Assembly: GCF_018350175.1 (NCBI RefSeq)
Contig: NC_058368.1
Coordinates: 109,990,001-110,054,000, forward strand
Length of the DNA stretch: 64,000 nt
Direction: 5' to 3'
Source: Felis catus
Taxonomy: Eukaryota
Shown here: one piece after another, positions 2,052 through 58,619 of the stretch
Position numbering within the stretch: position 1 is the stretch's first letter
How the letters are laid out: each line of letters begins with the position of its first letter
The notes under the pieces: generated by a model
Seen by the model: the letters and a program-made list of their open reading frames with translations, nothing else
Databases searched by the model: none
Told to the model about the DNA's origin: nothing
Made by a program: the position numbers and the translations under genes

Positions 2052-4336
2052 AGTGGGGGAGGGGGACTTCTTTTCACTAGGACCAACTGTCTAGTTGAGA
2101 GCGAACAAGTTTGCATTAAAAAAAAAGCACCAAAATCAGTTCAGTGGACTCAAATCAAATCTTAGTCAATACGCAGCAGTTTCTGACAAATCCAGTTGGT
2201 CCTAAGTCAAGTTTTTTAAAGGGGGCTTTGCTTTGGGAACAGATGCCAGAGACACTGGTATTGATAATCAGGTGATCAGAACAAAAGGGTATTTCAGGAA
2301 AAATCCACTCAATGGGCCTTAGAACGAGCACAGTTTACCAAGAATGGAGGCTGGATTCACTGTTCCTGCGAGTTTCATCTGCTGTGGCCTGAGCTCTGGG
2401 CTGTGAGATCATCAAGCTACAGCGCAGAAAATGGATTTTAAACACAGAGCCGGTCAAAGCTGTGCCTTCCCTACACCACGTGGAGGTTGACAATCAGCTG
2501 GATGCCCTGGTCCAAGCCGTCCCTAGAAGTCAGGCCTTTGCCCTGATGGACCTCATAACACCATTTGCCCGAGAGCTGCCTTTGGGGTCTGCAGAGTTCT
2601 ATAAGGCACAGTGGTTCCTCTCCCATCTTGCTAGGCTGCTGGCTGCAGAGGGGGAGTGCAGCTTGGATGTTTATAAATAGTGGCTTGGTGAACACTGTGC
2701 TTGTAAAGCTGAAGGAGAAAGGAGGCTGCATTTGATGCCATCAGTCACTCACTAGCGACTTCGGGACGGAAATCTCACTGCCCACACACCTGGTCTTCTT
2801 CTCTCTCTCCTTCCCTCTCCAAGTCTTTAAATCAGGTCAACCTTCCTTGCAAGCGCCCAACTCAACAGAGCGTGCACGCCTCACATGGCCCTTCCTGCAG
2901 GGTTCCACTTCATTATCTCCGTGATCCAACATGGATGTGGGGAGGAAGAACGCGGACACTCTCTGAGTGATTTAACAGGATGCTTTAATGATGTATTGAA
3001 AATGAACATTGACCCCAGGTAAGAGGTGCTAAACGGATACTTTAAAAGCCCACCATCCATTTCACTCTGATGGGCTCTCCTCCTTAAATCACTGTGTTGT
3101 CATTTTTACGACGCAGACCTAGCTGTGGAGGCTACGGGACTGTGAAATGTCATATAAAAAGCCAATAAGAAAAAAATAAAATTAAGTTGCGGGGAGCGTG
3201 CATTAGCATTTCAAAAATGTTCTGTTGCATTATGCTACATTCTTCTCTCTCTGTCAAGGGGCACCAGGATCCTGTCCTCCCCATAAAGAGACTATGCCGC
3301 AGAATGTATTAGTGCTCCATTCCTGAAACCGTGTGGCAGCTGAAGGGCATAGTTACGATAATGGCGAAATACATTCTGGACTAAATTTGATAGGACACTG
3401 GGGCCGTCTGCCTCCTCTGATGAGAAAGTCTTGATTGCTTCTCTCCTTGTTGGCTCAGGTCCGTAGCTTTCAGAGTTTTGACAAATTAATGTTTTCAGCA
3501 TCTCTGCCCCGGAGAAAAGTAAGGAATGAAATCTGTTGAGGTGAGGGTGTGACTCTTGCACTTGAGGTGACGATGGGGTCGCCTGGCATTCTGTGAGGCA
3601 AGGGAACCACCACCCCAAACTCCCCTGCCTGGCAGCCCGTAAAATACCCCAAATTACCCAACGCCCAGACTACCTGAATGGCTGGATCTGGGATTGGGTA
3701 GGTGTGGCCCGCTGTGCCATCTGGAAAGTACGAGTTTAGGAATGCACCCTGGGCCTGGGTCTTCAGGGAGCCTCTGGAGAAACTGAAACCCTTAGCACTC
3801 TGAGGGGTGTCTTAAATTCTAACTTGGAGTCTGGTTGGCGCTGTTTTGTGAACTGGGCTTTCAGATCTGAGCTGGGCCAGATGGAGGGATGGTGGCTGCA
3901 GAGGGAGGAAGCCTTGCCAGTATTGGCCTCGAAGAGCCCCCTGGTCTCCCGGGTCATTATGGGAATGCGATTCCTTTCTAGGGCTCAGAATTTGCCAAAT
4001 TGGGGAAGATAAATCCAGCGCCCCTAATAGTCGATGACGCTAAGCCATTGAAACAATTGCAGTGCTTTATCTGGAACTTTTCAGAAAGCTGACTTGTTCG
4101 TTAGGAGCCATCCACTTGATAGAATTCCACTGTATTGTTTTCTAGCGCGATGTGCTGCAGAACGGGTTTGGTCAGCACTTTGGCTCGGGGAATATATTTT
4201 CATTTGAGAAGATGCTTCTGCTGGGCTTCTTGCAACATCGCATTAGGAAGTACTGGACTCTGAGCCCCGCTGAGGGAAGGAGCCTGGGGGATGCCGCCAC
4301 GGCATTGCAGGGTGTGGGCAAGCACAGAGTGGTATG

Positions 4337-4482
4337 TTTTCTTCTTCTTCTTCTTCTTCTTCTTCTTCTTCTTCTTCTTCTTCTTCTTCTTCTTCTTCTC
4401 CTCCTCCTCCTCCTCCTCCTCCTCCTCCTCCTCCTCCTCCCCCTCCCCCTCCTCTTCCCCCCCCTCCTTCTTCTTCTTTTTT
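4337..4482. repeat. Compound (TTC)20(TCC)14 microsatellite in a 146-nt pure pyrimidine tract
   Basis: TTC 4339-4398, TCC 4399-4440, degenerate C/T tail to 4482. Confidence 0.95.
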
Positions 4483-6089
4483 AAAATATATTCATCATCA
4501 AGTCCAGCCCATGAGAACCTGATCTGAATTGAATTTTACCCCTAATGAGATGCCATGTCCCTTCTGTTCTCTCAAAAAGAGACCTTGAGAGTTTGTATTA
4601 GAGAGCGAAACAAAACTTTTCACTGTTTTCATGTTTCCTAATAACAGCCTGAGTCATAACCTGAATTTTTATGCAACTAATTATGAGTGCGACTCGGGCA
4701 TGAAAGATTTATATGATCAGAAAAGAAATTACCTGCGTTATCTCTGGGCAGGCGGGGGATGAGTCGACGAGGTGAGTTAATCAGTTTTCTAGGTCATGCC
4801 GAAGGCACCTGCACGGTGCTGGCTGGCCGGTCTGTCCTTTCACCAAGCTGAGTGAGGGAAGGACTGGGAGACATCCTCCTGGGACACTCCCAGAGCTTCC
4901 CATTCCCCCTCCAGCCTGGGAACATCCAGCTTTGGCCATGGGGCCTCTGCAATCAGCATTTCCTCCCAATATGACATTCCTATCCTCTGCTTCCTGAGAC
5001 CAACGTGCCCAACTAACCTAACAGTCCCGGGGAAACAAAATCAAAGCCCGAGAGGGGACTGGCTTAACAGGAAATGAGAGACACGTACAACAGGGAGACG
5101 GTCCGGGAGGTTGATTCCTATGATCAGAATGGAAGCTGGAATTCTATCCGTTGTTTGCTCCTTAAAGTTTCATTTGTTACAGAGACTGAAAATTAATTAC
5201 AGGTCCGTACCTTGAAGCAGGCGACCAAAGGAATAAGTATTTGCCAAGAAGCAATAGCTCTTACAGCCATCATGCTCACTAAATTACCCTCATATTGTTT
5301 ATCTGTGAAAGGAGCGGCTGGCCCAGCGTGGCGGTAAGGAGTGCATGATGGAGAGCCAGTGCGGGGCGAGCGGGAAGTCATGCGTGTTTAGGGCTGTAAT
5401 GCGCATTTAGTTACACGGCCATTTGCTGAGGCCCACCACTGATTAATATACACAGGCTTGTTCATTTACTCAGCATTACGTTTAATCATTTAATTTTCGT
5501 GAGAGTTTTCGGATCTTTTAATCATCCTAATATTCTTCTTATTGCAACATATTACTAAGCTGTTAGTTCAATTCAATTAAAAAGTGTCATCTCCAAAAGT
5601 AATTTATTCCATGTGCATCGTTAAGCGGATACCCCAGATATGTCTGCATTTTAAAGGAATAATAACTCTTCCGATTTATTAGTCTGCAAACCACTGCGCT
5701 GCGTTAGCACTAAAGACGATGCCGCGAGTGGTCAATGTCTGTGGGTGCTGGTGGGGTGGTGGCAGATCTGTGACTGTTTCTCCAGATTTTGTACTAAGGC
5801 TCAGAAGCGAGTAGGAAAGTGTGGGCCATCTGTTAGTAGTTGGGTGGCCCCCGAAAACCCAGTGTAACTTTCTGATCCTGATAGTGTTTGTAATAGCGTG
5901 GCCTCGGAGTTCCCCCTTTGGGGGCCCCTTGGCAGAAGTTTCTATCTCCACCGCCTCTTACTTCAAGCAGGTGCTATAGGAAGCACCTGCTGTGGGTCTG
6001 CTAGGGGAGAGTTTAGTGTCTTCTCTCCTTGTCAGGATTCTGGATCTTCCTGGTTGACTTTTGAGTTCCTTCCTCTGTTCTCTCTGGAG

Positions 6090-6420: not shown

Positions 6421-7818
6421 CTCCAGTACCTTGAAGCCCGGGCCCCGTGCAACCAGGCTGTGGCTTCCCTGAGCCTGTGGCTCCCCTGAACTGAGGACAG
6501 AACTGCTTGGGGTCAGGATTAGCTGGGGGTCTGTCTGCAGAAGTTGGTGATGCTCCCACAGGGGACAGATGCTCTCACAGGGGACAGTAGCCACTGATGA
6601 CCTCTGAGGCTCATCTTACCCTGAGGTTGCAGGAACCCAGCAGGCCCAGGAAGGGTGACTGGTGGGAAGAAACAGCTTCCCCTGACCACATGAACTTGTC
6701 CCTGGGCCTTTGTGTGGCCAAAGGGAAACCCAGGTTTGTGGGTGGAAGGAAGAGAACCACGTTAGGGCTTGTGGACAGGGAAGGATCCACATCGACTTTT
6801 TAGCCCCTGTGCCTGGCCAAGCATGAGCCCAGGTGCATACAAGGGGAGCCCCTCCCAGGGGAGTCCCCCTGCCGAAGGAGCAAGCCTTGTCCTCAGCCTG
6901 CTGTGTCCCACAGGAGAGATTTACTTTCCCTGGGGAACAAAGTCCTCCATGATGATGCCACTTAGGATATTAATGCCTGCGCTCCAAGGCCTAAGTGTTC
7001 CTCTTTCTTTGGCAGACTCCTCACGGCCAGGGCGGTGAACAGGTGCCGACAGAGTGTTGTTTTCAGAGATGTGCTCTGGACAGGCGGGATGTTACTTGAG
7101 TCTTGTGACAGCAGTCAAGTGCCATTTCCACATGCTAGAACCTTGAGCAGTTAATCCCCTGGGTCTGTCCCTTATATGAGCCAGCCGAGGAGCCTTGAGA
7201 AGTCAGGGACAAATAGAGAGACGGTGCAACGTCTTAACGCCCTTTCCTGTTCTTGCAGAATGCTGTGATTATTAATATCTCTCTCTCAGAAAAGGGCTAT
7301 GTGTGCTGTTTTTTTAGGAGAACAGCAATAAAAAAGGGAAATTAAATTAGCAACTCGGTGTGAACCTCTAATCCATTAAAGTGTCTTCAGCTCCATAACC
7401 TGTTACCTTAAACTCTGGCTCCCTCCTTAAGTGGTTGCAGGGAAATAGCAGTATGCTGCCTGGCCCCATTTTGTACCCGTTATGATAGAAGTGATTGAAT
7501 GTCAGCAAAGCCTGGGCTTCTGTTCCTGGGCGAGAGGGCTCTGCACGGGGTTGGTATGCTCAGACTGCACGTGACCAAGGATGCAAATGCTCCCTGTCGA
7601 GACACCCGTGCCCTCACCCCAGCATGCACACGGAGCTCCGAGAATTAACCAAACACACATACCCCCTGTCTCCAATCCGTACTAAATAATGTGAAGATGA
7701 AACTGGCTTTGGAGGAAAATGTCACGAAGAAACTGAACACAGTAACAAGCTCAGGGCACCGATAATAGCAGCTAGCGGGTACTGAGTGCCAACAGTGTGC
7801 CTCGTTCTATGCTGTGAC

Positions 7819-9039: not shown

Positions 9040-9480
9040 CATGTCAAAGACTTACACAAGAATGCTCACAGAAGCAGTCTTCCTAATTATCCCAAACCGG
9101 AAGCAACCCAGGTATGTCAGCTGTGGCATATTCGTACAATGGAATATTAGATGCCAGTGAAAGGGTAAGATCTCTGCTGTAGGTGAAATTACAATGGAGG
9201 AAACTCACCAACAGAGTTTGGAGGAAGTAGACCATTACAAAAGGGTCATGCTAGATGCGTCTACTGATAAAAAATTAAAAAACAGGCAAAATGGCTTTAG
9301 GGTGTTAGAAAGACAGGTTAATAGTTACACGTCGGGGGAGGATGTCCGGGCTGTGATGCTCCTTTTGTTTCTGGGAATAGTAGTCAATTGGGCTGTCCAT
9401 GGCTACTGCACCAAACTTGTGCACTTAGGATTCGTGCACATTCTGTGTGGAGCATGCCGATTACAGTGGGAAAAAAAAAC
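9040..9480 (+). mobile_element. Old L1 (L1ME-like) 3' fragment
   Basis: Motifs ACAAGAATGCTCACAG, GGAAGCAACCCA, GTGGCATATTCGTACAATGGAATATTA and AAAAACAGGCAAAA. Boundaries approximate. Confidence 0.65.
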
Positions 9481-9512
9481 CCCGACAGAAACTTTACCAC
9501 ATGAATCAGTAA

Positions 9513-9586
9513 ATATAATATATAAAGAGGAAAAACATACTGTTTTATATATATATATAATATATAAAGAGGAAAAATATACTGTT
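9513..9586. repeat. 32-bp direct duplication with a 10-nt TA spacer
   Basis: ATATAATATATAAAGAGGAAAAA(C/T)ATACTGTT at 9513-9544 and 9555-9586, one mismatch. Confidence 0.9.
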
Positions 9587-10345
9587 ACTCTCTGCCAGCT
9601 GCCACCTACCTTCCCCTGGGAAAGTCCTGAGAGGAGCCTGCATGGAGGTGAGGACCCTCCGGTGCCTGACTTGTCCTTGGGGTGAACTCCAGTGTTCTGG
9701 GTAAAGCAGCCCATGAACATGGCTGAGTCCCTGGAGGGTTCTAGAGACTGTGACTGAGTGAAGCCCTGTTATGAACTGTTACTCGCGGTTTGTACCAAGG
9801 ACGCTTGGTGCTCTGTGAAGCAAAAGATGGACAGCCAGCCTGGGTAAGGCAGGGCCCTCTTTGCGAAGATGCCAATGTGACAAGAGATTTCATTACCCCC
9901 CGCTCATCCCCGTGACCAGACCTGTGCACCCCCCTGAGCTCAGTCCCATGGCCGAGACCACATGGCCCTCCACAACAGTGGGAAGGTGTGTCTATTTTAC
10001 AGACGGGAAAACTCTTTCCAGGGACCTTAAGAGATTTGCGTGGCTCCCCCGGGACATCCCCAGCATATGGGAGGAGACCTGGTCTCACAATCTGTCCAAA
10101 GTGCCGCTGGGCTGATGCCATTAGTGCAGTGATGTCCAGAAGCATTGAGAGGTCTCCATCTGCTGGCTACAAGGTGGCAGTCCACCGGAGGGTCAGGCGC
10201 ACACACCCTGTCCAAAGGTCTGCCCCCCTGAGCTCCGGGGTCTGACATGTCATGTGTGTTTGGAGCAAAAGGGATTTTGTAACTCTGTGTAACTCTTGCA
10301 CTGGTTCCCGCCCCCCACCCCGGCTCACCAGGACTTCTGCGATGC

Positions 10346-10527
10346 CTCAGCAGTAATCTTGGCTCTAGTTCCCAGCCCCACCTGCCTGCCAGCCACATGG
10401 GCAGTCTCTCTGTTCGCAGGTGTTCCAGGAGGGCTCTGCCTCTACTGGAACCTTCTTCCCCACATTCCATCAAGGCTGGCACAAGCTTATCCTCCCTGCG
10501 TTGTCACAATTCACATGTGTTTTAATG
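10346..10527 (+). repeat. Left arm of a long inverted duplication
   Basis: 10353-10527 matches the reverse complement of 12283-12457 with 5 mismatches in 175 nt and no gaps (manual alignment). The match extends 7 nt outward with 2 more mismatches. Confidence 0.95.
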
Positions 10528-11444
10528 ACGCCTTGCCTCCAATACAGTCTAAGGGAAGCCCGGACCTGTTCTCCTGTCTGTCCTAGGAGGCCATCCAGCA
10601 GAGGTGGCATCAGGAGCCACCTGGGGAACATCAGAAATATGAGGAAGTTCTTAGGAAAAGGCTGGGTCCTAAGTGTGGGGCTCAGAGGGGCATGCTGCAG
10701 AGGAGTGGCCCTCCCTGGCAGGTGGTTCTGACAGGTCTGTGGGTCACTCTGACCTTGAAAACACAAATGATCCCCTGACAGCTGGGCAAGGGCACTGCTA
10801 CACTGTAGACTCAGGACCATGAGGGAGGGAAATGCCCTTGAACGCCACCTGGCCCCCTGCTCTTCTGATGGATAAGTAAAACAAGGGATCCTCAGGTATA
10901 CAGGGCACCAAGAGCCTTGCTGAGCCTGAGATTCAGGTCTCTGGGCTCCCAGACCAGGGAGGAGGTGCCGGGCACTGTCTCCTGAAGATGTAGCCATACA
11001 AGGGTCTGACCCCCATGGGCCATGAGGCCCTTCGGCAGCTCTGGCCAACCCACTCATACTGTGTGGGTGTAATTCAAGTGCTGCCGTGATCCTGGGGGTT
11101 CATGCAGAAAGGTGCTAACTTCTGTGGAGATGTTCTTTAGGGCTGTGTGTTCTCTGGACTTCCAGTATCCTAAACTGTAACCACCACTTGGCTTCCTATG
11201 AGCCTGGTGAGGAGGTGTAGAGTGAATGTGGGTAGGTGGCCACATCACACATTTCCTAGGAAGTCTGGGGGGGCCCCTGCATGGACCCAATATGGAGGCA
11301 GAGTGGGAGCCACAGAGCATAGGAGTGGTCAGCGGTGAGGCTAGCCTGTATGGCTAGCATGGCTAGCATGTATCTGTGAGGGCCAAACTGGCCCACGGCA
11401 CGCATCCCACACCAGCTCTCTGCCACGGGCATCGTCCTTGGGGC

Positions 11445-11878
11445 CAGAGTGGGATGATAGTGTCCTCCCCAAATTCACATCCACTGGAACCTCAGAAGAT
11501 AACCTTATTTGAGAATTGGATCTTTGCAGATATAACTACTTGATGATCTCGAGATGACATCATCCTGGATTTAAGGTGGGCTCTAAATCAAGTGACTGGT
11601 GTCCTTATAAGAAGAGGACGTGGAAAAAGTAGGAAAAAGGCCGTGCAAGGATGGAGGTAGAGACTGGAGTTCTACTGCTATGATCCAAGGAGCGGCAGGA
11701 GGCAGCAGAAGCTGGAAGAGGCAAGAGAGGGTCCTGTCTTCGAGCCTTTACAGGGAGCATGGCCCTCCAGACACCTCGAATGCTGACTTCTGGCCTCCTG
11801 GACTATGAGAAAGTAAATTTACATCATCTCGAGCCACATTGCAGGAGTTTGTCATGAGAGTCCTATGAGACTTCTACA
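11445..11878 (+). mobile_element. MaLR solo LTR (MLT1B/C-like)
   Basis: GTGTCCTCCCCAAATTCACAT, ACCTTATTTG...TCTTTGCAGAT, GACTGGTGTCCTTATAAGAAGAGGAC, AGAAGCTGGAAGAGGCAAG and GACTTCTGGCCTCC...ACTATGAGA are typical MLT1 motifs. Ends in ...TACA. Confidence 0.85.
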
Positions 11879-12282
11879 GGGCCTGTGTTGAGTTCAGGGG
11901 GCAAATCAAGCCGCGACACCTTCCAGGCCTGTATGTAGCCACAGGCTCTGAGCCCTGGCCAATCATTTCCTTGCCCTCTCGGCCTCCGGCGGCCACATGA
12001 CCTACAGTGGCACAGGTGGGAAGTGGCAAGCGTGCCTGGGGAGAACGCACAGGAAGGAGACCTTGAACTCTCAAGACACTGGCTCAGTCCAGCCACTCAG
12101 TGCAGATGCAGTTAGCTCACAGGTCTCTAGGTTGGAGCCCAGACATGACTATTCATGAGCCACGTTCCTGAAAGCACCCCAAACTCCCAGCCACGGCCCA
12201 TGCCACTCAGAAGGTGAACTGAGCCCGGTGGTACAAACAAGACATGAAAGTCATCCTCCACCTGCTGTGAAAACTCCAGAAA

Positions 12283-12464
12283 CATTAAAACACATGTGAA
12301 TTGTGATAAAGCAGGGAGGATAAGCTTGTGCCAGCCTTGATGGTATGTGGGGAAGAAGGTTCCAGTAGAGGCAGAGCCCTCCTGGAACACCTGCAAACAG
12401 AAAGACTGCCCATGTGGCTGGCAGGCAGGTGGGGCTGGGAACTAGAGCCAAGATTACAGCCGAG
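12283..12464 (-). repeat. Right arm of a long inverted duplication
   Basis: Reverse complement of 10346-10527. The ORF track shows the same peptides on opposite strands (e.g. FQEGSASTGTFFPT...GWHKLILPALSQFTCVLM). Confidence 0.95.
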
Positions 12465-15400
12465 CCCCCAGCCCCCAAGGAGAACTCCAAGACAGTCCCC
12501 ATTAGGTGGGAGGCTCCCCAGGGCAGGGACCTCAGCTGCCTGGTCTCACAGGGCCTGGCACCTTACACTCCCACTTAATAAGCAGCTGGCCACTGCAGGC
12601 GGAGTAAAATCTACCCTCCTTGCTTCCCCGATGACAGCTCCCCTCAGCACCACGTTCCAGCCGTGAGGGCCTGCCTGAGTCTCCCAGAGCGCGGCAAGAT
12701 TATCCTACCTCTGGGGTCTTCGTGAGAGGTGTGTCCTTTCCCCAGGACTCACAGCTGGCTCCTTCCTTCAGCTCTCTTCTCTTATGTTATGCTTTACGGG
12801 GGCGCCCCCCCTCCCCACAACTGCCCCACTTCGAGGGGATCGCCACTGTTTTCCTGTTTCTCTCCTCAAAGACTGTAAGTTCCCTGAGGGCAGGAATCAC
12901 ATATGGTTTTGCTCACCACTGGATCCCAGCAGCCTGCCCTGTGTGTGGCACATGGAATGTGCTGGGAAAACCCTTGGCGGATGAGCAGTGAGGCCTGCAC
13001 ACCGGATACTTCAGGGATGCTCTGAAGGGGGGGACATCACTTGCGCCCTGCTTCTTCCACCAGCCCCTCCTGCCCTTCTCCCCCACTCTAAAGCCTTGAG
13101 CCAGCCAGTGCTCCCATTTGCCTGGTGTTGGTGAGCTGTGTTCACGGCCCTGAGGGCCACTGAAAGCCATGAGTTCAGTGTCTCCAAACAACCCCTGTTG
13201 ACTGTTGGGTGGACTCTCCTTTCCAGGAAAACACTCCCAAATAGGTTGGATCCAGGAGGCCAATATTGGTAATAATAAAAGCTATTATCCCTGAGCGTTC
13301 TATCTTGCGCTTGGCTAAGCCCTTCACACACAATTCCCTGACCCCTCAGAACAATCTTACCAAGCAGGTGCTCTTATGACTCCCACTGTACAGACAAGAA
13401 AACCAAGGCTCAGAGAGGACCGGAAAACCCGCTCCACAGGACTCCCCATCTGAGCTCCCTAAAGGCTGCTGCAGACCCGTTCCAGGGCTCTCCCGAGGGT
13501 TGAGCTGAATGACTGTAACAACACTATAAGATTGAAGGAGCGTGTTGGGCCTGAAGACTGAGGGGGAAATGGTTAGGGAGGAGTTTTCTTTCTCATGGGA
13601 GACTAAGAGCAGTGAGGAAACACAGGCAGGGCATCTGTTCTGTGTATTCAGAGGCTACTTTGAGCAGGGGACAACCGAGCTGAGTCTTAAAGGAGTTTGA
13701 CCAGAGGATGGGGGAGAGCGGGGCCAGGGGAGGGGTTCCAAGCAGAGGAAACAGTATGTGCAAAGGCCCAGTGCTTTGCTATGAGTGTAGAAGAGCAGTG
13801 GCAGGAGCACCAAGCCATGTGCTGAGGGCAAGGTGGACATTCCTTAAATATCTCGGGCCCAAGAGATGTTGCCTGATGCATCCGTGCATGTCCCGGGGCA
13901 GGGAACTCATAGCCGTCGGGAGAGAAGCTGCCATTTCTGATTTTCTGCCAACTCACAGTTGCATTGTCAAGTTCCAATTAACATTCATGGAATAACTGAA
14001 ATATGTAATTGGAAAACTCATAATGCGTTTTAACCCCATTAGCAGCAGGTGTGTTTTCTCCTCATATGACTCCTCTTGTGAGAGAAGACTGGAGGCTCAG
14101 CAGTGGTTCCCAACAGGCAGAAATAGAGCCTTCTAACCAGGTGACGTCCCCCCTTCACGCCCCAGGGCTAGGGCAGCCCTGTGGTCCCCCAAGCAGACAC
14201 GTGGGTCACTTGGCCCATGGGTGCAGCCTGCTGATTCTGCCCGGTCGGCGGGGTCAGCCCTGAACCCTCACCTGGGCTCAGCCTACTGAATCGGGCATCT
14301 GTCACACTCACTCAGGTCCTCTGGGGCCCTGCATCTTGCTCTGGAAGGCTCCATACTGATCTAGTTACCACACAGAATAGCCCCTTTGCTAGTTAGATAA
14401 TTGTCTTTAAATAAACACCACGGTCTTGCCAGGCTCATCTGACATTTGCCTCTTCTCAAAGAGACAGCTGATGACACTCATCAAGTTCTGAGAAGTAATT
14501 AGGGAGCAGAGGGGCATGGAATGCCTATTAGCACAAGCTTGGGGCCCTGGGTGGGTGAGGTGCACCCCGTCAAAGCAAAGGTGCCATATTCTCACCTGCC
14601 ACCTGCCTCTGAGGACCGCTCCCCGTCGACAGATGTTGAAGGAGGGGTTAAAAATCCCAAACCGTTTCCCCCCTAAAGGCGTGTCCCACTTGCCTTTCCT
14701 GGAGGCCTTTGGACCCTGAGCCCAGCTTGTGGGGTTGTGCGTGTGTATGAGGGAGTTCTTGAAGGCCCTAACAGGGCAATGGGGTGCCCTGAAGATCCAG
14801 CTGTGGGGCTGGCCCTTGGCTGTCCTGGTGGTAGACAGCAATGTAGGCTCTGTCTTGGAAAGCTGTGGCCGGTGGGAAGGGATGCATAAGACAGACAAGC
14901 CACAGCAGCTCCACGTGAGAGAACCCTACTGTAAACTCCGGATCCAGGCAGGCAGCCTGCCTCCAACTTCCCTCTCCGCTCCTCGCTCAAATGATGTCAG
15001 ATGTCACGCGGCCCATACAGACCCCGGGTGACAGATGATCGGGCGAGCAAATTCTAGGTGTTGCTGGGAGGGAAATGAGAGGAGGCCTTTGAGGTGTTTG
15101 GCCAGAGGGTGCGGAGCGGAGCCGGTAGACATTCGTGCAGACTACTGCAGAGACTGTGCACGAGGCAGGGGGGCCGGGGGTGCTGGCTCACGGCGCTGTA
15201 TGAGCACGTCTGTGCGAGTCCCATCTGCACGGCAGTGGCGGAGGCCACGGGTGATGGCCTGTGTCCTACCCTGATCCACTCGCATCCTGGGGGAGACCAT
15301 CTGCGCCTGCTGCACTTCAAGCACACTTTGGGTCCATGCTCCCAGGTCAGGCCGCTGCTAATCAAAGTGTTGTTTCCTTTAATTAGAACAGACTCAAACA

Positions 15401-16299
15401 ATTAAAAAGACCACTCTTCCATTGTTGGGGTGTGACATTCCCTCTTGATCCTAAGACTTGTATCTCTTGGGGCAGAAGCTGGGGGAAGGATGGGGGGAGT
15501 GGGCGCTGTGAGATGAGCAGACCTGCTTTTGGAGGGTGCGGCTGAAGTCCCCGCAGATCTGCAGGGCTGCCCACCCGTTGGACCTCCCCCTGCCACTCTG
15601 CCTGGCCTGTGCAGACACAGCACCGGGCATGGTTCTGCCTGGCATGTATGGCTCTATAACCATACAGAGTCGGGGTCCTGACTCTACTTTGGGCACAAGA
15701 TCTTTTTCTAAGTCCTTGGCCCGTGCTCTTGGAGAAGACTCAGGCATCCAACACCTGGATAAGCCCCCCACCCACCAATCTCCATCCCTCTGCCTGCTTT
15801 GAAATGATTAATAAAGTAACACTTAAAATCTGAGAGGCTGTCCAGTGTCAGATGCAAGGGAGACAACTAAATCAGACACAGTTCCTTCCGTTGAACAAGT
15901 AAGCTTTTCTTGGGCGGGTGCCAGAGGGGATGCAAAAAGACCGATGGGAAAGACATAGGCTGAGGAGAGTCAGAGCACTGCGAACAGAGCTGCCTGGGGC
16001 ATGAGACCCAAGAAGCAGGCAGAGGCGTTCAGACTCAGTGAGGCAGGAAAAAGGGAGCCATTGAAGGCTCTGGAGTGGGTGAGTGCAAGGTGATGGGTGA
16101 TGCTTGGGGAGCCCTGCCAGGGAGCCGTGGGAGTGTTCAGAGCACGGCACCTCGATGCTGCCCCCCGCCATGCCAACCAGACATGGTGGGACAGGGAGGT
16201 CTGTGTGGGTTCTTGTGCCCTCTTATTATAAACAGGAAGAGCTCTGAGAGAAGAGAGACAAACCAAGAAACACTTATGAATGAAAGAAATGAGAAAACA

Positions 16300-16514
16300 G
16301 GGGCACCTGCGTGGCTCAGTTGGTTAAGTGTCCGACTTCGGCTCGGGTCATGATCTTGCGGTTTGTTGGTTTGTAGGCCTGGGCCAGGTTCTGTGCTGAC
16401 AGCTTAGAGCCTGGATCCTGCTTCAGATTCTGCGTCTCCCTCTCTGCCTCTGCCCCTCCCTCCCTCCCTCTCTCTCTCTCTCTCTCAAAAATAAACAGTA
16501 AAAAAAAAAAAAAA
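16300..16514 (+). mobile_element. CAN-SINE (SINEC_Fc-type) with 17-bp TSD
   Basis: GGGGCACCTGCGTGGCTCAGTTGGTTAAG head, (CT)n, A-tail. TSD AAAGAAATGAGAAAACA at 16283-16299 and 16515-16531. Confidence 0.95.
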
Positions 16515-17259
16515 AAAGAAATGAGAAAACAAAAGAGTGCTCATGATGGAGATGGGATTGAGTTAAATCCTGCAATGGGGAGTATTTCAGTTTTGAACAG
16601 TGTCTTGGCAAAATGAGGGGAAATGAGTAAGGTTCAGGTCACGTCCAGCCAGGGGTCAGCCTCCAGCCCTTTCCCCAAAGCTGTCACTAGCACCATGGTC
16701 TCTCGCCGACCCGGGCAGGAGAGACGCGCCCCCTTCGCTGGCTGTGAAACGTCATCCTTAGAACTACCACGGGGTGGGGTCTTGAACTCTCCCACTTCCC
16801 CCTCCGTGGCTCCAAAGGAATCATTTCCCAGTGTCCCCCAAGTCCCAGGGATGCATGTGCTGTCACTGCAGGGAGCCACCCTGACCTCCAGCTCATCTGG
16901 TCTCTCTCCTCCAGACAGGGCCTGGCTGGTTGGAGCTCAGCACCACTGGACACAGCTTGGGGCTGGGACGCCCCTGGGGCAGCAGAAACAGGAAGTGACA
17001 ACAGGCTTTCCACAGACCCTGGGATGGCCCGTGGGTACAGCTACGTCCAAGAGCAGACTCTGTGAAGACCTGGCTTGAGTTCTCAGGGCTGACAGCGTTG
17101 ATCACCAGCACAGTGGCTGCATCACCCCAGGCACCAATAAATCCACTCTGCCCCAGGCCCTCTCCTGGTGCTAGGGCACAGCAGAACGCACCCTGCCCGC
17201 CTACACGGAGCCTGCAGCCTGCGGATGTGTGTGACAAGGTCATTAATGAGGCCGACTGC

Positions 17260-17771: not shown

Positions 17772-17803
<32 letters not shown>

Positions 17804-18013
17804 TTTTTTTTTTAATGTTTATTTATTTTTGAGACAGAGAGAGACAGAGCATGAATGGGGGAGGGGCAGAGAGAGAGGGAAACAGAATCGGAAGCAGGCT
17901 CCAGGCTCTGAGCCATCAGCCCAGAGCCCGACGCGGGGCTCGAACTCACGGACCGCGAGATCGTGACCTGGCTGAAGTCGGAGGCTTAACCGACTGCGCC
18001 ACCCAGGCGCCCC
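17772..18013 (-). mobile_element. Young CAN-SINE (SINEC_Fc) with long A-tail and TSD
   Basis: CpG-intact body and ~50-nt T-rich tail on the + strand. TSD GAGAAGCTGCTTTTT at 17757-17771 and 18014-18028. Confidence 0.95.
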
Positions 18014-19104
18014 GAGAAGCTGCTTTTTGTGCGGAAAGAGAAACACAGACTGGTGAGTTATGGCTGCAGGAGGTAAAGCCGTGTGGCTGCTCTGGGGCCT
18101 GGAGACAGTGTCCCAGCTCAAGGCCGTGTCACGGCACTGGGGATGAGATCAAAGCAAGGAAGGGCGAGAGAGAGGCCACTGAGGGACATCTCCTTGGAGG
18201 ATATGACATTTGAGCTGGCCCACGGTGACTGGGCAGATCCTAACGAGCAGGTGGGCCTTCTTGGCTGCTTTGTAGAAGCAATTGTGGTTCTCTTGGTTTT
18301 TACTCAAAGTGTCTGTGAGCGTCTGGAAGTTATAAGACACACTAATCACCTTGATGCTGCCCACAGACCACATTCCTCCTCTGGGCTTCGGTGGAGCATT
18401 TTTAATCCTATAAAAGGAAAACCTAATTCCAGAAGTATTGATTTTAAATTTCTTTCCATCTCTTTCACTTAAAAACAATCCCTCGACTCTGGGCAGCCCC
18501 CACTTTTCCAGGTTGTGTCGACTGGCAATCACATCTTCACATGCACGAGGCCAAACACCAGGGCTTCTCAGTCAGAAACCCTCAGCTTCAAGTGCATGGA
18601 GGCTTTACAGAGTAACTGTTTTGCAGAGGAAGGGATCAGTGCTGCAGGGGTTGGAGACTTAACAAACCCAACCACCTTCCTTAAATCAGTGTTGGCTGGG
18701 AGATGCTACGGGGGCCCCAGCCTATGATGGGGGAAGCTGTGTGGCTCATTTCCTTTTCTCAGACATGGCACAGGAGGCCACCCGGCTCAGCCCTCACCCG
18801 GCTTCTCTTCTGCCCAGAGCTTTGGATGGCTTTCCCTGGCCTGGTACTCGAGACCCGTATGCCCTGGCTGACCTCACCGCTATGACTCCCACCGCCCCCT
18901 ACGGCCTGCATCCTGCGCTCCAGGATACGTCAGGGAACGCGTTCTGTGCCCGCTAGCCTCCCTGTCTTTGCTCACACTGTTCTGCCTGCCATTTACTTCA
19001 GTCACACATATCTTCTGGAGCCATTCAAATGCCAAATGGCACCTCTTCCAAGGAGCCTTCCGTGACTGCCACACCACAAGCACTCTGGGTCTCTCCCTGG
19101 GAAG

Positions 19105-19310: not shown

Positions 19311-19684
19311 CCCTTTTCGAAAATCACTGACATACGTTCAGTATCCCAGCTCCACCTCTCACTGGCTGCATAGCCCTGAGAACAAGTGACTTCGCCTCTC
19401 TGAGGCTGGAGCCTTGTGGAGTCTGTGGACCCTAAATGAGAGTCTTGGGGACAGGTACCTCTGGGGAGCGGCACTGCCTGCCCCTCCCAGGGCCCATCTG
19501 AGTCTGCCCAAGCCCCACTCCGGCCTACTCCCTATAGAGAGCTGTCCATGGCAATGCTGTTGCTTCTCTGGAAATTGGCTCATTTAGTATTCACAAGACC
19601 AAACACAGAAACTGTCCAGCCAGGAGACGCTTAAAACCTGGCTCAGAGCCCCGTAGCGAGAAACTTAAAACAAAGCAGGCTTTT

Positions 19685-19898
19685 GGGGCGCCTGTGTGGC
19701 TCAGTCAGTTAAGCATCCGACTTCAGCTCAGGTCACGATCTCACGGTTCATGAGTTCGAGCCCCGTGTCGGGCTCTGTGCTGACAGCTCAGAGCCTAGAG
19801 CCTGCTTTGGATTCTGTGTCCCCTTCTCTCTCCGCCCCACCCTTGCTTGTGCTCTGTCTCTCTCTGTCTTTCAAAAATGAATAAACATAAAAAAAAAA
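19685..19898 (+). mobile_element. CAN-SINE (SINEC_Fc-type)
   Basis: GGGGCGCCTGTGTGGCTCAGTCAGTTAAG head and A-tail. TSD AAAGCAGG(C/T)TTTT. Confidence 0.95.
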
Positions 19899-22724
19899 AA
19901 AGCAGGTTTTTGACAAGCCCCTACCTTGTGCCCTATGGCCCTGGATGCTGGGACAGAAGCTTCTTGGAGGGTCCCTTGTTCGTGAAGAGCTAAGGTGCAC
20001 CCAAGGTCTGGTGGTATCTATGGGAAGGACTGTGGCCCAGCTCTGCTGACTTACCCACGCAGCATCCGCATCAGGACAGCTAGACAGCACTGAAGGAGGC
20101 ATCTGAGGACTGAGGGGCACCCAGCCTCTCTGGGTCTCATTGCCAACTAGCTAATAGCGCCCTGCCCTCCCTCCAAAGACAAATATGAGGTCCTGCAGCA
20201 GCTGCTCTCCATGTCTGAGAGGTGGTGTTTTGCCCTCCCCTTCCGTCCCAGAAGCCTGGGCTCAGGGAAGCGTACCAAGGCCTGGAAGAGGCCCTTTGCT
20301 CAAGGGAGCTCCAGGTACTACCCCTTTTTGAGGGAGCACCCGACAGGACAATGTCAGGTCAGTGGCACTGGCCTTCCTGCTATTCTGCCAACACGTTGAT
20401 GGTCCCAGAAGGCCCAGCACAGTCAGCCATGGGACACCCAGCTCCCTCTCTGCCCATGGGGCGAGCACACCCTCTGCCACCTTGGGGCCTGGGGTCACAG
20501 TGGGGACCTTGGAGGCTGCCAGCTCCGGAGCTCCAGGGTAGAGTAGGGCAGAGATGGAGGCTGGCCCAGCCTGGCCTTGGAGGCCCAGCTCCGACTGTCC
20601 CACCACAGAGCTGCCCAGCTTCAGTCCTGCATCACGGAGGCCGGGAACACGGTAAGCACTCGATTAACATTCAATATATATTCTTCAACCCTGTCTCCTA
20701 ATGCCTCCTCTGAACCTTTCTCTCACCTCAAGGAAGAGCCCTTTCCTTCTCTCTCTAGTCACATCTACCTCATCTGCATTCATCAAGCCCATCCTCTTCC
20801 AGGAAGTCAGCTGATCTTCAAGATATTCCAAAGCACCTAGCACTCAGACCCCGTGGTTTTGCATTCTACACTCCTGCACTTCCTTCTGCCCATGGGCCTC
20901 ATCTCCACAGCTGGGGTGGGAGGTCCAAAGTGCAGGGCCCTGTACCATCACTTCCTCCCCTCCCAAATGAATGACTGGGCATGGCTCCCTTCCCCAGAAT
21001 CTCTCCTAGAGGAAAAGCCCTCTAAGACTGTGTTTTAGACTCCAGGAATGAGTGAGAGACCACAGGGTGGTGGGGCAGGTGTCCCACAGCTGGGGACACC
21101 TGTCTCCTGGCTTTCCCAACTCCTGGGCCATCCAAAAGCCTGTCCTGGTGCACATATAGTCCAAGTCTGCTGTTCCGCCTCCAGAGCTGCCCAAAGCTCA
21201 GCACCAGCCATAGGCTGGTAAGGCAACATGACCACAGTACGGCGTGGGGGACTTAGTTCACCTGCATGCTGAGCACAGGTTTGTTTATTCCTACACTCCT
21301 TGGCCATCAGTTCACTCGATGAGAAACACAAATGGAGCAATGGCTTCTGAAACAAGAAGAATTTTGTCTCCACTGCATTTGTATTCAAATGGGCAAAATA
21401 AATTTCAGTGTTTTCCGAGGGTTCCAAGAGCCGGGCCTGCGTACCTAGGGGTGATGATGGCGTTCCTTCCCCGAGAGAGCAGCCAGGATGAAAAATGAGG
21501 CCTAAAACAAACCTTTGCAGTCAATCTGTTAGCAGTGGCACAGGCGCAGCATTGGCCGGGGGGGACCTGTCCTCTGGGCCGGGTGTGCCCCCTCGCAAAG
21601 GCAGCTCAGTGATTAATTATCACATGCCCCAGCCCGGAATTGTGAGGAGCAGGGTGAATGAGTAAGACAGAATTTTATCTCTGAACGCATGGGGTGGGAA
21701 GCCGGTCAAAGTATGTGGTGCTCTAAATGAACGGAATGTTTAGAGCTGCATCAATCAGAGGGCATGTTCTACGCCTACACCTGCCACTTAACTCCTCCTG
21801 CACCAGCATCCAGCTGAGCTCCTGCAAAGCCTTTGGGAAGCCTACTGCCTTCTTCTATGTGGAAACAGAAAAAAGCCTCAAGCCTGAATCTTCTCTGAGC
21901 CCAACACCCAGGCTTCCTGGCAAGTCGGTAGCCCTGGGAGAGGAGGGCCCTCAAGGGATCTTGATGTGGATATCTGAATTTCAGCAGCAGACATTATGGC
22001 TGGGCCTCGGTCACATTGGCTCACTGGGGTGAGGCAAGGCACAAACCACAGGAAGGGTGGCCTGTGGCTTTAAACAGTCCTCCCTGGAGCACTCACAGAT
22101 GGCTCAGAGAAGCAGGGACCATCACACCTGAGATGGGCAGGCCGTGAGAGGCGCCCACGGCTCCAGGATACGCGCCCTTCACCTGTCTTGCTTGAGCCTG
22201 GCAAATGCGTTCAAGGACTTCTTTTCCTTCAACACGACTCTGTGGAACCCCGTGGAGATGCCCAGACCCTGGCTTGTTGGTTGGCTTCAGCAGCCACCAG
22301 GAAGCAGCCGGGCCCGGCAAACCCTGCTTCTCACTCTAGTGCCATGTGTCCCTGCACGTCAGTCTCTCCGCCGGGCCCTCGGTCTCCCCTCCGCCTCCAA
22401 ACCTTCTCCCACTGACTCACAGTGCAGCCTCTCAGAGACCTGGCCAACCCACTCCGCGGCACGTAGCAATCATGTCACAGATGAGGTGGGTTTAAGGGAG
22501 AAGGTGAGTGTGCTTGAGGAAGAGAGGTGAGAGGTGAGAGGGGGGGTGGGCTTGGGGGAGGACAGAGAGTTTGGGCACACTCAGAGTATGATGTCCGCAG
22601 GGAGTGACCAGGAGGACAAGAGGGCTGCTGAAGCGGGGTCTGGAGGTGTGGCTGGGACAAGACCTCCTGCCCCTCTACCCCCCACCGGGGGGCATGTGAC
22701 TGAAGAGAGAAGCTCAGGTAAGCG

Positions 22725-25176: not shown

Positions 25177-26839
25177 CGTCTTTGCTGCTCTGGTTCTAAC
25201 CTTTCCTTCCAGCATCATCTTCTGCTTCTCTCTTGCTCCTCTGTGATACAAGGGAGAAACTGGCCATGCTAGGTGGCCCGGGGCCTTCCCATGTCTGGCT
25301 GGGATGTCTTTCCCTACTCCCATATCTGCCTATGACAGCCCAGCCAGCCTTCTCGGAAGACTTGTGGCATTTTTGTGATTACAGGTGTTAACACCCTTCT
25401 CACTTTCTAAGATAGCTTTTCGGCCTGTCTTTGCACATGTATTCATTTCCCGTAGGAGAGTGAACCCCCTGGGGCACAGGCCACACCTCACTCATATCCA
25501 ACCTGCTGACATTGGAGGGTCTGCCATGCGGTGGCCAGGGTGCCAACTCTGGAGGCCCATCCCCTGATTTGAGTTTCAGCTCTACCTCCCTTACCGACTC
25601 TTTGGTACCTCAGTTCCTCGTCCATAAAACAAGGATAAAGACAGGACAGCACCTCAAAGAACCTGCTCCCAGAGAGAGGCGGAAACACCCTTGCATGCTC
25701 CATGGACCACCCACCATCCCTCTTTGCTGCAGTCGACTGGCCATTTCAGAGGGCTGTGGCCCCCGGCTGACAATAGCCTATCCGATGCTCCTGTTGTGTT
25801 AACACCAGGGGTTGTAAACATCCGAGTTGATTACACCACCAACTCTCCACCTCATCTGCCCTCACTCCCATGACTGTCCTGGAATCTAGACATTGTCCTT
25901 ACAATAACAGCAGCCTGAAACATCTTATCTTCAGGCACCCTGCTCTCTGATCACTTCCCGCCTCTTCTAGTTTATTCCTTTGGTGTCCAGACTCCAAAAA
26001 TTTCTCAATTCCACTGGGACCCACAATCTACTGACCAACTGAACTGTCCATCACCCCCTTCCTGATGTCACTTCCTTCTCGCCAGCTTTAATTCCATGGA
26101 ATTTAAACCACTGGAACCATACATTGCCCACACCCTCAGTTCCCTGCCTGCCCTTGGCACTACCCCGGCCCTGGATAAACCTATCTGCCTACTTTGTGCT
26201 TTGTGCATCCGTGTGGGCAAGCATGGCTGGGGAAAGCACATGTCCTGCTCACTGGTTTCCCTTTAATTCATGACTATGAGCCACAAAGGGGCCTTTCACG
26301 TTGCCAGGGGCCATACAACCTTCTCTCCATCTGTTCAGCCTCCCACTGTCCTTGACAATTGTTCCACGCTTTCCTTCTCCTCAAACCGCTTCCCAATGCA
26401 CTGAGAAAACAGACATCTACACACATTCCCATCACATCCACCTACCTGTACCTGTGCTCACATGCCCAGGCTTTTCTCCTATTAATATGGACCTACTAGC
26501 CACTCTCTGAGGCTCCCCTCCACCTGGGCACTAGATTGCACCTGCCCTGCTCACTCAAGAAACCCGATCCAGGCATATCACCTCTTCCTTCCACAGCATC
26601 AATATTCCCCTTTCTACTTGATTATTTCCAGCAACATACAAATATGCTGTCACCACCCCTACCTTACTGTTCCTCCAGCTACCACCCTATTCCTCTGTTC
26701 TTTGCCACAGCAAAACTCCTCAGAAGAGTGCTCTGTACCTTGTTTCTCCAGTTTCTCTCTTCCCACGTGCTCTTGCAACCTTCCCCCACCACTCCATGGA
26801 GACTGCTCTGCACCATTCCCACAGATCTCCAAACTAACG

Positions 26840-27313
26840 CAGGTACGCCTCATTTTCTTGTGTTTTGCTTTATTATTTTGTAGATGCTGTATTTTTTTTT
26901 GGTACAAACTGAAGATTTGTGGCAACCTGTGCCAAGCAAGCCTACTGGCACCATTTTTCCAACTGCATTTGCTCACTTTGTGTCTCTGGGTTACATATTG
27001 GTAATTCTTGCAATGTTTCAAGCTTTTTCATTATTGTATTTGCTCTGGTGATCTCTGAGCAGTGATTATGTCTTGCTGAAAACTCAGATGACGGTTGGCA
27101 TTTTTTTTTTAGCAATAAAGTATTTTTTAATTAAGGTATGTATCTTTTTTGGACATAATGCTATATAGCACATTTAATAGACTACAGTATAGTGTGAACA
27201 TAACTTTTATATATACTGGGAAACCAAAAAATTGCTTTGATTCACTTTGGTTGTGATAATCTCCTTCCTGTGGTAATCTGGAACCAATCCCCAGTGTCTC
27301 CAAGGTATACCTG
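26840..27313. mobile_element. Internally deleted Tigger1 (TcMar-Tigger) element with both ends
   Basis: TIRs CAGGTACGCCT... and ...AGGTATACCTG. The Tigger1 5' part (GAAGATTTGTGGCAACC, CCATTTTTCCAAC) is joined near 27070 to the 3' part (AGCAATAAAGTATTTT, TAGACTACAGTATAGTG, CTGGGAAACCAAAAAATT). Confidence 0.88.
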
Positions 27314-27328
27314 TTGTCCAGCAAGCTC

Positions 27329-27555
27329 TTTTTTTTTTTTTTTTAAGTTTGTTTACTTATTTTGAGAGAGACAGAGACAGCAAAAGCCAGGGAGGGGCAA
27401 ACAGAGAAGGAGAGAAAGAGAATCCCAAGCAGGCTCTGCACTGTGAGCACATAGCCCGATACAGGGCTCAAACCCATGAAGCCATGAAATCATGACCTGA
27501 ACCGAAACCAAGAGTTGGACGGACGCTTCATCAACTGAGCCATCCTGGTGCCCCC
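27329..27555 (-). mobile_element. Older CAN-SINE
   Basis: T-tail, GAGAGAGACAGAGA, GAATCCCAAGCAGGCTCTGCACTG, CATGACCTGA; head ...GGTGCCCC. Confidence 0.9.
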
Positions 27556-29729
27556 AGGGATGCATTTGGCACAACCCACCACTTCCTGACTTATTCTTCT
27601 CTTGGCTTCTAGGACATCACCTTGCCTGTTTTCCCTCCTCCCTCTCTAGCATCTTCTTACTCTCTTTGGCTAGCTTCCCTGGTCTACTGACCTCTTCACA
27701 CTGGAGACTCTTTGGGCTTAGTCTTGGATATCCTTCTCCACCTCCCCTTACCCACTCAGTGACCTCATCCGACCTCATGGCTGCCAACACTGTCAACATG
27801 CCGAGGACTTTTACGTTTTCATCTCTAGCCTGAACCTCTCCCCTGAACTCAGTCTTGTATGTCTAACTGCCTAGTCAACATCGCCACTTGGATGTCTGAC
27901 AGGCACCCCAAACTTGGTATGCTCCCATGTGAACTGCTGCTCTTCCCTGCCTAATCCTACATCACCCACAGTTAGTGGCAACCCTAGTCTTCCAGTTCCC
28001 ATACCAATCCCGCCCCCACCCTTTTTCTCATTAACACTTCCAGCCTCTCAGCAAATATCTTTGGTACTGCCCTTCAAAATATCCCTATAATCCGACCATT
28101 CTCACCACTGTCCTGCCCATCACCTCCACCCTAGCCACCGTATCTCCCTCCTGGATTGTTGCAACAGCCTCACTAACCTGTCTGCTTGCTTCTACCCTTG
28201 CCCTGCCAGTCTTTTCAAAGAACAGCAGCCAGAGTGATTCTTTTCAAATATAAAGTCACTCTTCAACTTCAACACCCCCCCCCCCCACCAAAGGCTTTCC
28301 ATTTCACCCAGGTAAAAACAGATCCTTATGCTAGCTTCTGGGGTCCCCCAGGATCTCTGACCTCACTTCCTCCTTCCCATGCCACCCCAGTCTCCAGACC
28401 TGTTCTTACCTGGGAGGGGCTAGGATGTGTCTTCTGCAGGTGACCTCATGCCTAGTATCCTCCCCACCCCCTCACCGCCCCCCCAACCCCCGAGTGAGGA
28501 TTTTTGTGTCTTTTGAAACCTGCAGAATCTGAATGGCCTAGAACAGTGTCTGCTGGGAAGTAGCTATTGTGTGAATGCGCTCTGCCTCTAGGGCTGAGCA
28601 TTTTTCACCTGCAGGCCAACCTTGGGGGCTAGGGGTGGTGGCGGTGTCATGCCAGCTCAGCTGTAGATTCTTCAGGGGCACCTCTGAGGCCACACGGGTG
28701 GGATGAGCCTGCCTGTCTCCACCATGGCAGGCTGCCCTCCTGAATCAGTAATTGCACCCTTTGATGGAAAACATTGTGGAAAAAAAAGGCTCTATACAAG
28801 AGACAAGAGTACAAGTTTTCATGCCAAACAGCATCACCAAAAACTGTTTTGCACTAATGTGTCCTATTCCACATGCCAGATCTCAAAAGCATTGTGCAAA
28901 ATGTCTTAATTGATTTTTATAACATCTCTGCCAGACAGAAGAGAAATCAGTCCCCTGATGAAAGAAAGAAAACTGAGTTTTTGTGGTTAAATTGGGCACA
29001 AAGACAGAGCGGGGGAGCCTCAGGTTGCCAGGAGTGGAGTTGGGGCCTCAAATCTGTCCTCAAGCCAAAGCGTCAACTCAGGTGCACGTGACTTTTTCAG
29101 AGATGTGCTGGTGGGGGGGGGGGGGGGGGCTAGAGCCAGAGTGCCTGGTTTTCAATTCCTGACCTACTGACTCCCAGGTGGGCGACTTGAGCTTTCTATG
29201 TCTCAGTTTCCTCAGCTCTAAAATGGGGATGAATAGTATTCTTTTCATTAGGACCATTGTCACTAGATACTGATGAACTGATTAACAAGAAATGTTATTA
29301 GTAATAACAAATGTCATAGCAGAGCCACTGGTCACAGTTTCTGACCGCCTGCCTCCTACATGTGACTACTGTGTGCCCCAATGGCCCCAGCTCCTTGTCC
29401 ACTCAGACCCACACAAGCCTGGGACTGGACACATGGAGCCTCAGAAAGTGCTTTCCAAATCAGTCCTGGCCCCACTGAGGTTTGGGCCCCTAAAGCCCCA
29501 CTGCAGGCCTGTGCAGACTCTGCTGGGTAGGGCAGACTCTATAAATAAGGATGCTTCTCATGGGCTGGCCTTTGTGGGCCGACAGTGTCCCCTTCTCTGG
29601 ATACACTCCCCCTCTCTAACCACCTGTACATGCAGGGCCAACACTGGCCCAATTTGAGATGCCACAGGGAGCCTGCTGAAGCATATGCTGGGGACCACAA
29701 ATGTCCCCACAAATGAGTGCCAGGATAGC

Positions 29730-43199: not shown

Positions 43200-43523
<324 letters not shown>

Positions 43524-47161: not shown

Positions 47162-47620
<459 letters not shown>

Positions 47621-57700: not shown

Positions 57701-58200
57701 GGCTGGGTATTGTAAACTCTGTTTACAACTGTGTCAAGAAGTATTCACCATTTTGGAGAATTACACCTCCAAAAGCAACATCACTTAAGTATTCAAAGTG
57801 TTAACATAACATGCCCGTCACAGGGTCTGTCTGTAGCTGTTCACAGGATCCGTGGGTGGGTGCTGACATCTGACCACTATGACTCAGTATATGCAGCTGG
57901 TGTCCAAACATTTACATACTGAAAGGCAGACTTTATTGCTACTACTTCTCTTATATTTCTCCTTTACATCCCAGTTTGAATAAGACACATATTCATTTCA
58001 AAATTATATGGGGGTTCTACAAAATATTTGCTATGAAAAGGTGGCTTTGGGTCTAACAGGATTAAAATAAAGCCATCTATGTGACAACTAGAATCCGTGG
58101 CCTTCTTTTTTACCCATTTAGTTTTATCATGGTCAAATACACATAGTGTAAAATTTACTATCTTAACCATTAAATTTTTTTTCAGTGTTTGTTTATTTTT

Positions 58201-58416
58201 TTTATTTTTTTTTCAACGTTTATTTATTTTTGGGACAGAGAGAGACAGAGCATGAATGGGGGAGGGGCAGAGAGAGAGGGAGACACAGAATCGGAAACAG
58301 GCTCCAGGCTCTGAGCCATCAGCCCAGAGCCTGACGCGGGGCTCGAACTCACGGACCGCGAGATCGTGACCTGGCTGAAGTCGGACGCTCAACCGACTGC
58401 GCCACCCAGGCGCCCC
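58201..58416 (-). mobile_element. Young CAN-SINE (SINEC_Fc) inserted into the tail of an older SINE
   Basis: Nearly identical to the copy at 17772-18013. TSD AGTGTTTGTTTATTTTT at 58184-58200 and 58418-58434. Confidence 0.95.
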
Positions 58417-58619
58417 AAGTGTTTGTTTATTTTTGAGAGAGAGAGAGAGCGAGCGTGAGTGGGGGAGGGGCAGAGAGAGAGGGAGACAAGAATCGGAAGC
58501 AGGTTCCAGGCTCTGAGCTGTCAGCACAGAGCCCGACATGGGGCTCGAACCCGTGAATCATGAGATGATGACCTGAGCCGAAGTCGGAGGCTTAACCGAC
58601 TGAGCCACCTAGGCACCCC
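58417..58619 (-). mobile_element. Older CAN-SINE, host of the nested copy; its tail remnant is at ~58172-58200
   Basis: Body ends ...GACTGAGCCACCTAGGCACCCC. Degenerate TSD CTATCTTAACCATT / CTACCTTAGGCATT. Confidence 0.9.

Follow-up and report, generated by a model that had tools for sequence, protein, structure and literature searches.

Background

Template switching, as in FoSTeS/MMBIR and polymerase-theta end joining, is a known source of local templated or inverted insertions. Among the templated sequence insertions described by Onozawa and Aplan 2016 (PMC5110952), class 2 comprises inserts (73-414 bp in experiments, with a median of 191) copied from a distant donor that lies in a transcribed region and remains intact, with bases added at the junctions and no poly(A), while class 1 comprises L1-mediated retrocopies with poly(A) 10-30 nt after a polyadenylation signal and a target-site duplication at TTTT/A. 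Inverted repeats are also known as substrates of inversion: in the human cases, repeats of more than 90% identity flank a unique spacer (PMC6748972, PMC3961182, bioRxiv 2021.12.20.472354), and they measure 654 bp to 24 kb in the main-text range for 24 cases (PMC6748972), at least 200 bp in 132 of 183 inversions, and at least 10 kb in 23 of the 32 recurrent ones (bioRxiv 2021.12.20.472354). In the staggered-break model of Ranz et al., inversions carry the hallmark of sharp-edged, non-repetitive arms, 46 bp to 1.9 kb in length (PMC1885836). At the level of RNA, inverted SINE/Alu pairs form long intronic stems edited by ADAR, the editability of Alu pairs dropping with a length scale of about 800 bp (PMC4066801), and a survey of mammalian inverted duplicates, limited to spacers of 1 kb, counted millions per genome (PMC5398296).

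The locus considered here is an inverted repeat in an intron of the cat FSTL4 gene. It shares with the class 2 insertions, as described in that report, an intact donor in a transcribed region, a similar insert length, apparently added bases at the junctions and the lack of poly(A). It departs from them in that the donor lies 1.75 kb away instead of being distant, in a possible short target duplication, which is a class 1 trait, and in that the copy is apparently common to all sampled data sets and is not a recent polymorphism. Unlike the class 1 TSIPs it lacks the poly(A) tract. Its candidate target duplication, a direct repeat of 10 nt, is imperfect and parted from the arm by fillers. The inverted copy of nearby DNA, the sharp edges and the putative short fold-back filler resemble the products of FoSTeS/MMBIR or polymerase-theta insertion; unlike in some templated insertions, no L1 sequence is attached to the cat copy. 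The similarity of the arms and their unique spacer recall the human repeat-mediated inversions, although the cat arms are only 182 nt long with a 55-nt perfect run, and an inverted allele is at most a candidate. Similarly, a long intronic pre-mRNA stem is predicted as in the edited SINE/Alu pairs, but the cat arms result from a local duplication and the window offers them no competing partners, and the spacer exceeds the limit of the inverted-duplicate survey.

Structure and genomic context of the inverted repeat

The window, i.e. the whole 64-kb stretch of cat DNA that was analysed, contains 289 listed inverted pairs of at least 25 nt, among which the present pair ranks first by length (self-BLAST of the arms: E 1.6e-80). 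Its arms of 182 nt are 96% complementary, with 7 mismatches and no gaps (Table 1). The original prediction had described the inner, ungapped core of 175 nt with 5 mismatches (10353-10527 and 12283-12457), with its 1755-nt spacing and abrupt inner edges, and this description holds; the remaining 2 mismatches lie in the outer 7 nt by which the repeat extends further. The outer edges are equally sharp, with anchored extension past 182 nt scoring 0, a value reached by 294 of 294 null pairs. Local alignment of the four 300-nt flanks found nothing above chance in the orientation expected of older homology (the 4 outer-outer and inner-inner tests out of 12, P 0.15-0.57), and no third copy of the arm was found within the window.

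Table 1. Coordinates of the inverted repeat and associated features in the window
Feature	Position	Strand	Basis or remark
Left arm	10346-10527	+	donor; ancestral copy of old intron sequence, still in its original setting
Longest perfect stretch	10353-10407 (55 nt), partner 12403-12457		arm-to-arm alignment
Spacer	10528-12282 (1755 nt)		left end in ancestral orientation, from arm-to-spacer continuity in P0125, P0126, P0127
Old LTR-like segment in spacer	11440-11880 (approximate limits)	+	read by eye; presumably MLT1-like
Direct repeat, copy 1 (imperfect, 10 nt; possible target-site duplication)	12269-12278	+	9/10 identical
Filler after direct-repeat copy 1 (4 nt)	12279-12282		
Right arm	12283-12464	-	derived inverted copy; its + strand is the FSTL4 pre-mRNA sense of the donor
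Filler after arm copy (15 nt)	12465-12479	+	12467-12475 matches 12431-12439 as its reverse complement (presumably fold-back templated)
Direct repeat, copy 2 (imperfect, 10 nt)	12480-12489	+	
FSTL4 exon opening the repeat-bearing intron	43358-43481	-	tblastn, 88-95% identity; splice sites
FSTL4 EF-hand exon	47357-47550	-	tblastn; splice sites

The physical reality of the structure was assessed with 260 sampled 31-letter words of 10100-12700, a measure that is blind to orientation. A share of 0.98 of these words is present in 14 of the 24 listed data sets (8 studies), including 7 (5 studies) that are not marked as a possible source. About 21 of the sampled words belong to one arm alone, so that the share would be only about 0.94 if an arm were false, and hence the inverted repeat is not an assembly artefact. 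A scan of metagenomes with arm 20-mers gave one match, a bare 20-mer without extension that is attributable to chance, and the same scan of viral contigs gave none. Rfam has no match in the window, and a literature search on FSTL4, inverted repeats and inversion returned no paper naming FSTL4 among the matches listed.

The predicted location in an FSTL4 intron was borne out, with the gene on the minus strand. The reading frame 47357-47551 matches follistatin-related protein 4 (the best named matches being cheetah at 94% and lynx at 92%), and tblastn with three felid and canid FSTL4 proteins recovers two exons with AG/GT ends; the ESM Atlas returned only generic EF-hand clusters. No further downstream FSTL4 exon was found by tblastn in 1-43300, which places the repeat deep in the intron, with the closest exon 31 kb off. 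Elsewhere in the window, AT-rich, TAAT-rich and repeat-poor stretches at about 5150-5700, 2950-3400, 7250-7500, 55100-55480 and 56480-56640 resemble conserved non-coding elements by eye, and a compound (TTC)n(TCC)n repeat occupies 4340-4480.

The left arm as the ancestral copy

Outgroups for this non-coding DNA were provided by spurious reading frames that gene callers had placed on other contigs (Logan protein sequences); in general, such accidental calls on mammalian intron contigs (P0121-P0130) are usable for this purpose. The frame 10369-10728 retrieved three proteins among 1.84 billion representatives (P0125, P0126 and P0127; E 3e-24, 6e-12 and 5e-5; 51-52% identity), which, judged by their divergence, appear to come from more distant mammals. 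All three are left-type; the query is itself left-type and the library holds one representative per 50% cluster, so that right-type relatives could be hidden. A protein search with a frame crossing both junctions scored none of 13 candidates, and an exact protein look-up of five window reading frames matched none of the five.

The flanks were compared by frameshift-aware alignment with the arm itself left out, the left flanks being 10146-10345 and 10528-10727. For the outer flank the distant sequences score 139 and 61 on the left versus 39 and 31 on the right, and for the inner flank 197, 247 and 45 versus 21, 31 and 18. The left flanks are thus favoured in all five tests, each left score being reached by 0 of 150 nulls, whereas the right-flank scores are reached by 3, 29, 140, 39 and 133 of 150; the right flanks are no better than chance in four tests and marginal in the fifth (39 versus 139 on the left). 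P0125 aligns over 10208-10739, across both junctions of the left arm. P0127 was ambiguous in a cruder single-frame test (F1 3/282, F2 4/282) and was resolved once frameshifts were allowed. These alignments indicate that the outer flank, the left arm and the start of the spacer form an ancient unit. Since the distant sequences align through both left-arm junctions, the left arm is the donor and the right arm the copy, and since the left arm is ancestral on both sides, the left end of the spacer has not been flipped. None of the three distant sequences spans the right-hand site, where the empty recipient site is inferred. The converse candidate, in which the left arm is an insert, had been suggested by a 7-nt repeat around it (null 5-15%) and was ruled out by the flank tests.

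Divergence and age of the duplication

A second query, the frame 10030-10503, retrieved a single cluster of four sequences. P0123 agrees with the window, from which P0121 departs at a single residue. P0122, probably another felid by its 4 flank changes over 241 non-synonymous sites (1.7%, 0.5-4.2%), has the residue of the right arm at the two outer differences and that of the left arm at both of the inner differences that are visible. Together with the distant proteins it polarises five of the seven arm differences, with the left arm derived at 10349, 10352 and 10408 and the right arm derived at 12395 and 12344. The position 10415/12395 is a CpG site at which the outgroups split into two left-type and one right-type. 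The mismatches are not clumped, a longest perfect run of 55 nt having a P of 0.58-0.78. Changes spread evenly over both arms are the expectation of independent drift after one copying event.

At a rate of 1.8e-9 per year, as given in a report that places the cat-tiger split at 10.8 My (PMC4643047), the core yields an age of 8.1 My (2.6-19) and the full arm one of 11 My (4.4-23). The duplication is therefore probably about 8-11 My old (95% range about 3-23 My), approximately as old as the modern cat family. Exchange between the arms, if the fourth cluster member (P0124, see below) reflects it, may make this age a minimum. The arms are as alike as the youngest SINE pair of the window, which at 97.1% is the top of 28 pairs. 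That pair (17775-18016 and 58175-58619) was compared over 139 nt of body, and its copy 58175-58419 adjoins an older SINE at 58420-58619.

Junctions of the right arm

The original prediction saw no target-site duplication, which is probably wrong for the right arm, as an imperfect direct repeat of 10 nt flanks it, 4 nt beyond one edge and 15 nt beyond the other, and starts in a short run of A. A score as high is obtained by 2.2% of 1500 random 182-nt segments, a post hoc and hence modest figure. The 9-nt fold-back match in the longer filler has a null frequency of 0.3% of 3000 and 0.8% of 5000, likewise post hoc and modest, and elsewhere within 9300-15500 this 9-mer occurs in the two arms only. 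No microhomology with the donor flanks is visible at the junctions. Poly(A) is absent after the copy, the longest A run being 2, and signal-like hexamers are found at its 5' end only. The direct repeat and the fillers are in keeping with a staggered break that was repaired using a patch templated nearby.

Each arm has a TTTT/AA hexamer 3 nt in from its inner edge (10520-10525 and 12285-12290), with a post hoc chance probability of about 1-2%, and the left copy of the hexamer reads as an ATTAAA hexamer on the transcribed strand. TTTT/AA is the L1 endonuclease consensus (PMC11702581). The hexamer belongs to the ancestral donor and may be a chance occurrence.

Possible transposon ancestry of the arms

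By eye the arm resembles what we take to be a decayed L2 3' region. Neither a MIR profile, built on 13 copies of the window, nor a small profile of the L2 end matched the arm, two by-eye MIR-like segments being also missed or barely scored. With L2 3' profiles from 8 and then 12 hand-picked seeds, the arm scores were reached by 100 and 149 of 200 shuffles; at the 5% level such a profile recovers 2 of 12 held-out seeds against shuffles and 8 of 12 against window segments. With profiles of such low power, the non-transposon nature that the original prediction suggested for the arms is at most provisional. L2 ancestry would name the origin of the donor and leave the mechanism unchanged, because the right flanks show no matching remnant. 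The 3' part of a long pyrimidine-rich remnant at about 25800-28570, presumably L2-like, was used as a profile seed; this remnant is interrupted by an insertion at about 27330-27555, which we take to be a SINE, and by another.

A recombinant sequence

The fourth cluster member, P0124, combines the left flank of the window and the derived outer alleles of the left arm with the derived residues of the right arm at both visible inner sites. Its switch point lies between 10352 and 10415, a region that contains the 55-nt perfect run, and it comes from a single contig of 1063 nt. Three readings are conceivable, namely an inverted allele, a conversion tract of at least 52 nt, and a short-read assembly chimera through the perfect run, of which we think the chimera the more likely. 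That the 182-nt arms still exchange in living cats, with P0124 a real allele produced by a flip of the 1.75-kb spacer or by replacement of 52 nt or more of the left arm with right-arm sequence, is on balance doubtful, though a real minority chance. As for the recurrent inversion of the spacer that the original prediction envisaged, it is unlikely by human standards, as the repeats are longer there, and the one recombinant sequence leaves it a possibility.

Folding of the transcribed repeat

As had been proposed, the arms fold in silico into a double-stranded RNA stem: the duplex on the transcribed strand has an energy of -376 kcal/mol, and 178 of the 182 arm positions are paired in the minimum-energy fold. 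Three of the seven mismatches become G-U wobbles and four break pairs, with none compensatory. Three SINEs of alternating orientation, presumably of cat type (16300-16534, 17775-18026 and 19672-19901), form inverted pairs about 1.25 and 1.65 kb apart that could serve as natural editing controls; duplex energies are -372 kcal/mol for 17802-18026 with 19672-19901 and -286 for 16300-16534 with 17779-18013. The formula for Alu pairs, whose transfer to the cat is assumed, gives 0.57% editability at 1755 nt as against a baseline of 0.25% and 2.8% at 100 nt. The predicted stem is plausible but not special; any editing would be weak at most, and there is no sign of a selected role. Four RNA-labelled data sets from two studies (X15, X16, X18 and X19) hold 45-85% of the words of 10100-12700, possibly as DNA carry-over; in X16 and X18 the share exceeds that expected from total size, which may reflect intron transcription or such carry-over, and these data sets are not counted as evidence of expression.

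Origin of the repeat and alternative explanations

Taken together, the evidence makes it probable that the repeat is a one-off local templated insertion of felid age and without function, most likely a known, harmless kind of event. In one germline accident, a 182-nt piece of old FSTL4 intron would have been copied, inverted, into a break 1.75 kb off. The broken end at about 12279 would have borrowed nearby sequence as a template, by a microhomology-mediated template switch or polymerase-theta-type repair, or alternatively with nascent RNA as the template. A short fold-back patch would then have been added and the ends rejoined, leaving the imperfect 10-nt duplication; since then, both arms would have drifted neutrally for about 8-11 My (3-23), with exchange between them rare, if it occurs. 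An RNA template is conceivable because the + strand of the copy has the sense of the donor pre-mRNA, but orientation alone is a coin toss, and we regard this route as rather unlikely. Of the two origins put forward in the original prediction, a template-switch duplication is thus upheld as to one-off copying, with the flank tests identifying donor and copy, and revised as to its date, as at probably 8-11 My it is not recent.

The other origin, an old inverted repeat kept alike by gene conversion, found no positive support. It would start, for instance, from two opposite decayed L2-type remnants whose 182-nt middle was homogenized, or once overwritten, by non-allelic conversion. P0124, with derived alleles of both arms, and the by-eye resemblance to an L2 3' region would be in keeping with it, but no residual homology survives at any edge, the distant sequences find no match in the right flanks, the evenly spread mismatches are derived on both arms, and the L2 profile gives no arm signal, though its power against shuffles was low. 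Long-term conversion is not needed, given the split of three left and two right differences and the absence of older homology beyond the edges, and we consider it improbable. The staggered-break inversion, in which the arm would be duplicated at both breakpoints and the spacer inverted relative to the ancestor, would account for the sharp-edged, non-repetitive arms, and the TTTT/AA hexamer near the inner edges might be cited for it. It needs one new junction per arm, however, and as both left-arm junctions are ancestral it would require a second flip; this largely refutes it and makes it exceedingly unlikely.

Selection for an RNA stem in the FSTL4 pre-mRNA, as an ADAR or small-RNA substrate or a splicing modulator, draws on the stable predicted duplex with its wobbles and on the words in RNA-labelled data sets. 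Yet a SINE pair in the same window reaches nearly the same energy, the closest exon is remote, Rfam is silent, the expected editability barely exceeds its baseline, and most mismatches break pairs with none compensated, so that this explanation appears very improbable. As hard to credit as the staggered break are an assembly artefact and the insertion of two ordinary copies of a multicopy element: the arm is colinear with its flanks in the distant sequences, the window holds no other copy, and words of both arms recur in many data sets.

Significance

Should the allele represented by P0124 be real, repeats shorter than those in catalogued human repeat-mediated inversions would be driving a micro-inversion or conversion that segregates; the locus would then test the minimum inverted-repeat length for mammalian germline recombination, with marker bases ready for a measurement of the rate. 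A functional role of the RNA stem is unlikely. If no more than a neutral repair scar, the repeat is of little consequence in itself; it illustrates a known mutational process in a clean and datable form, and its inverted copy might serve as a presence/absence marker in the cat family tree.
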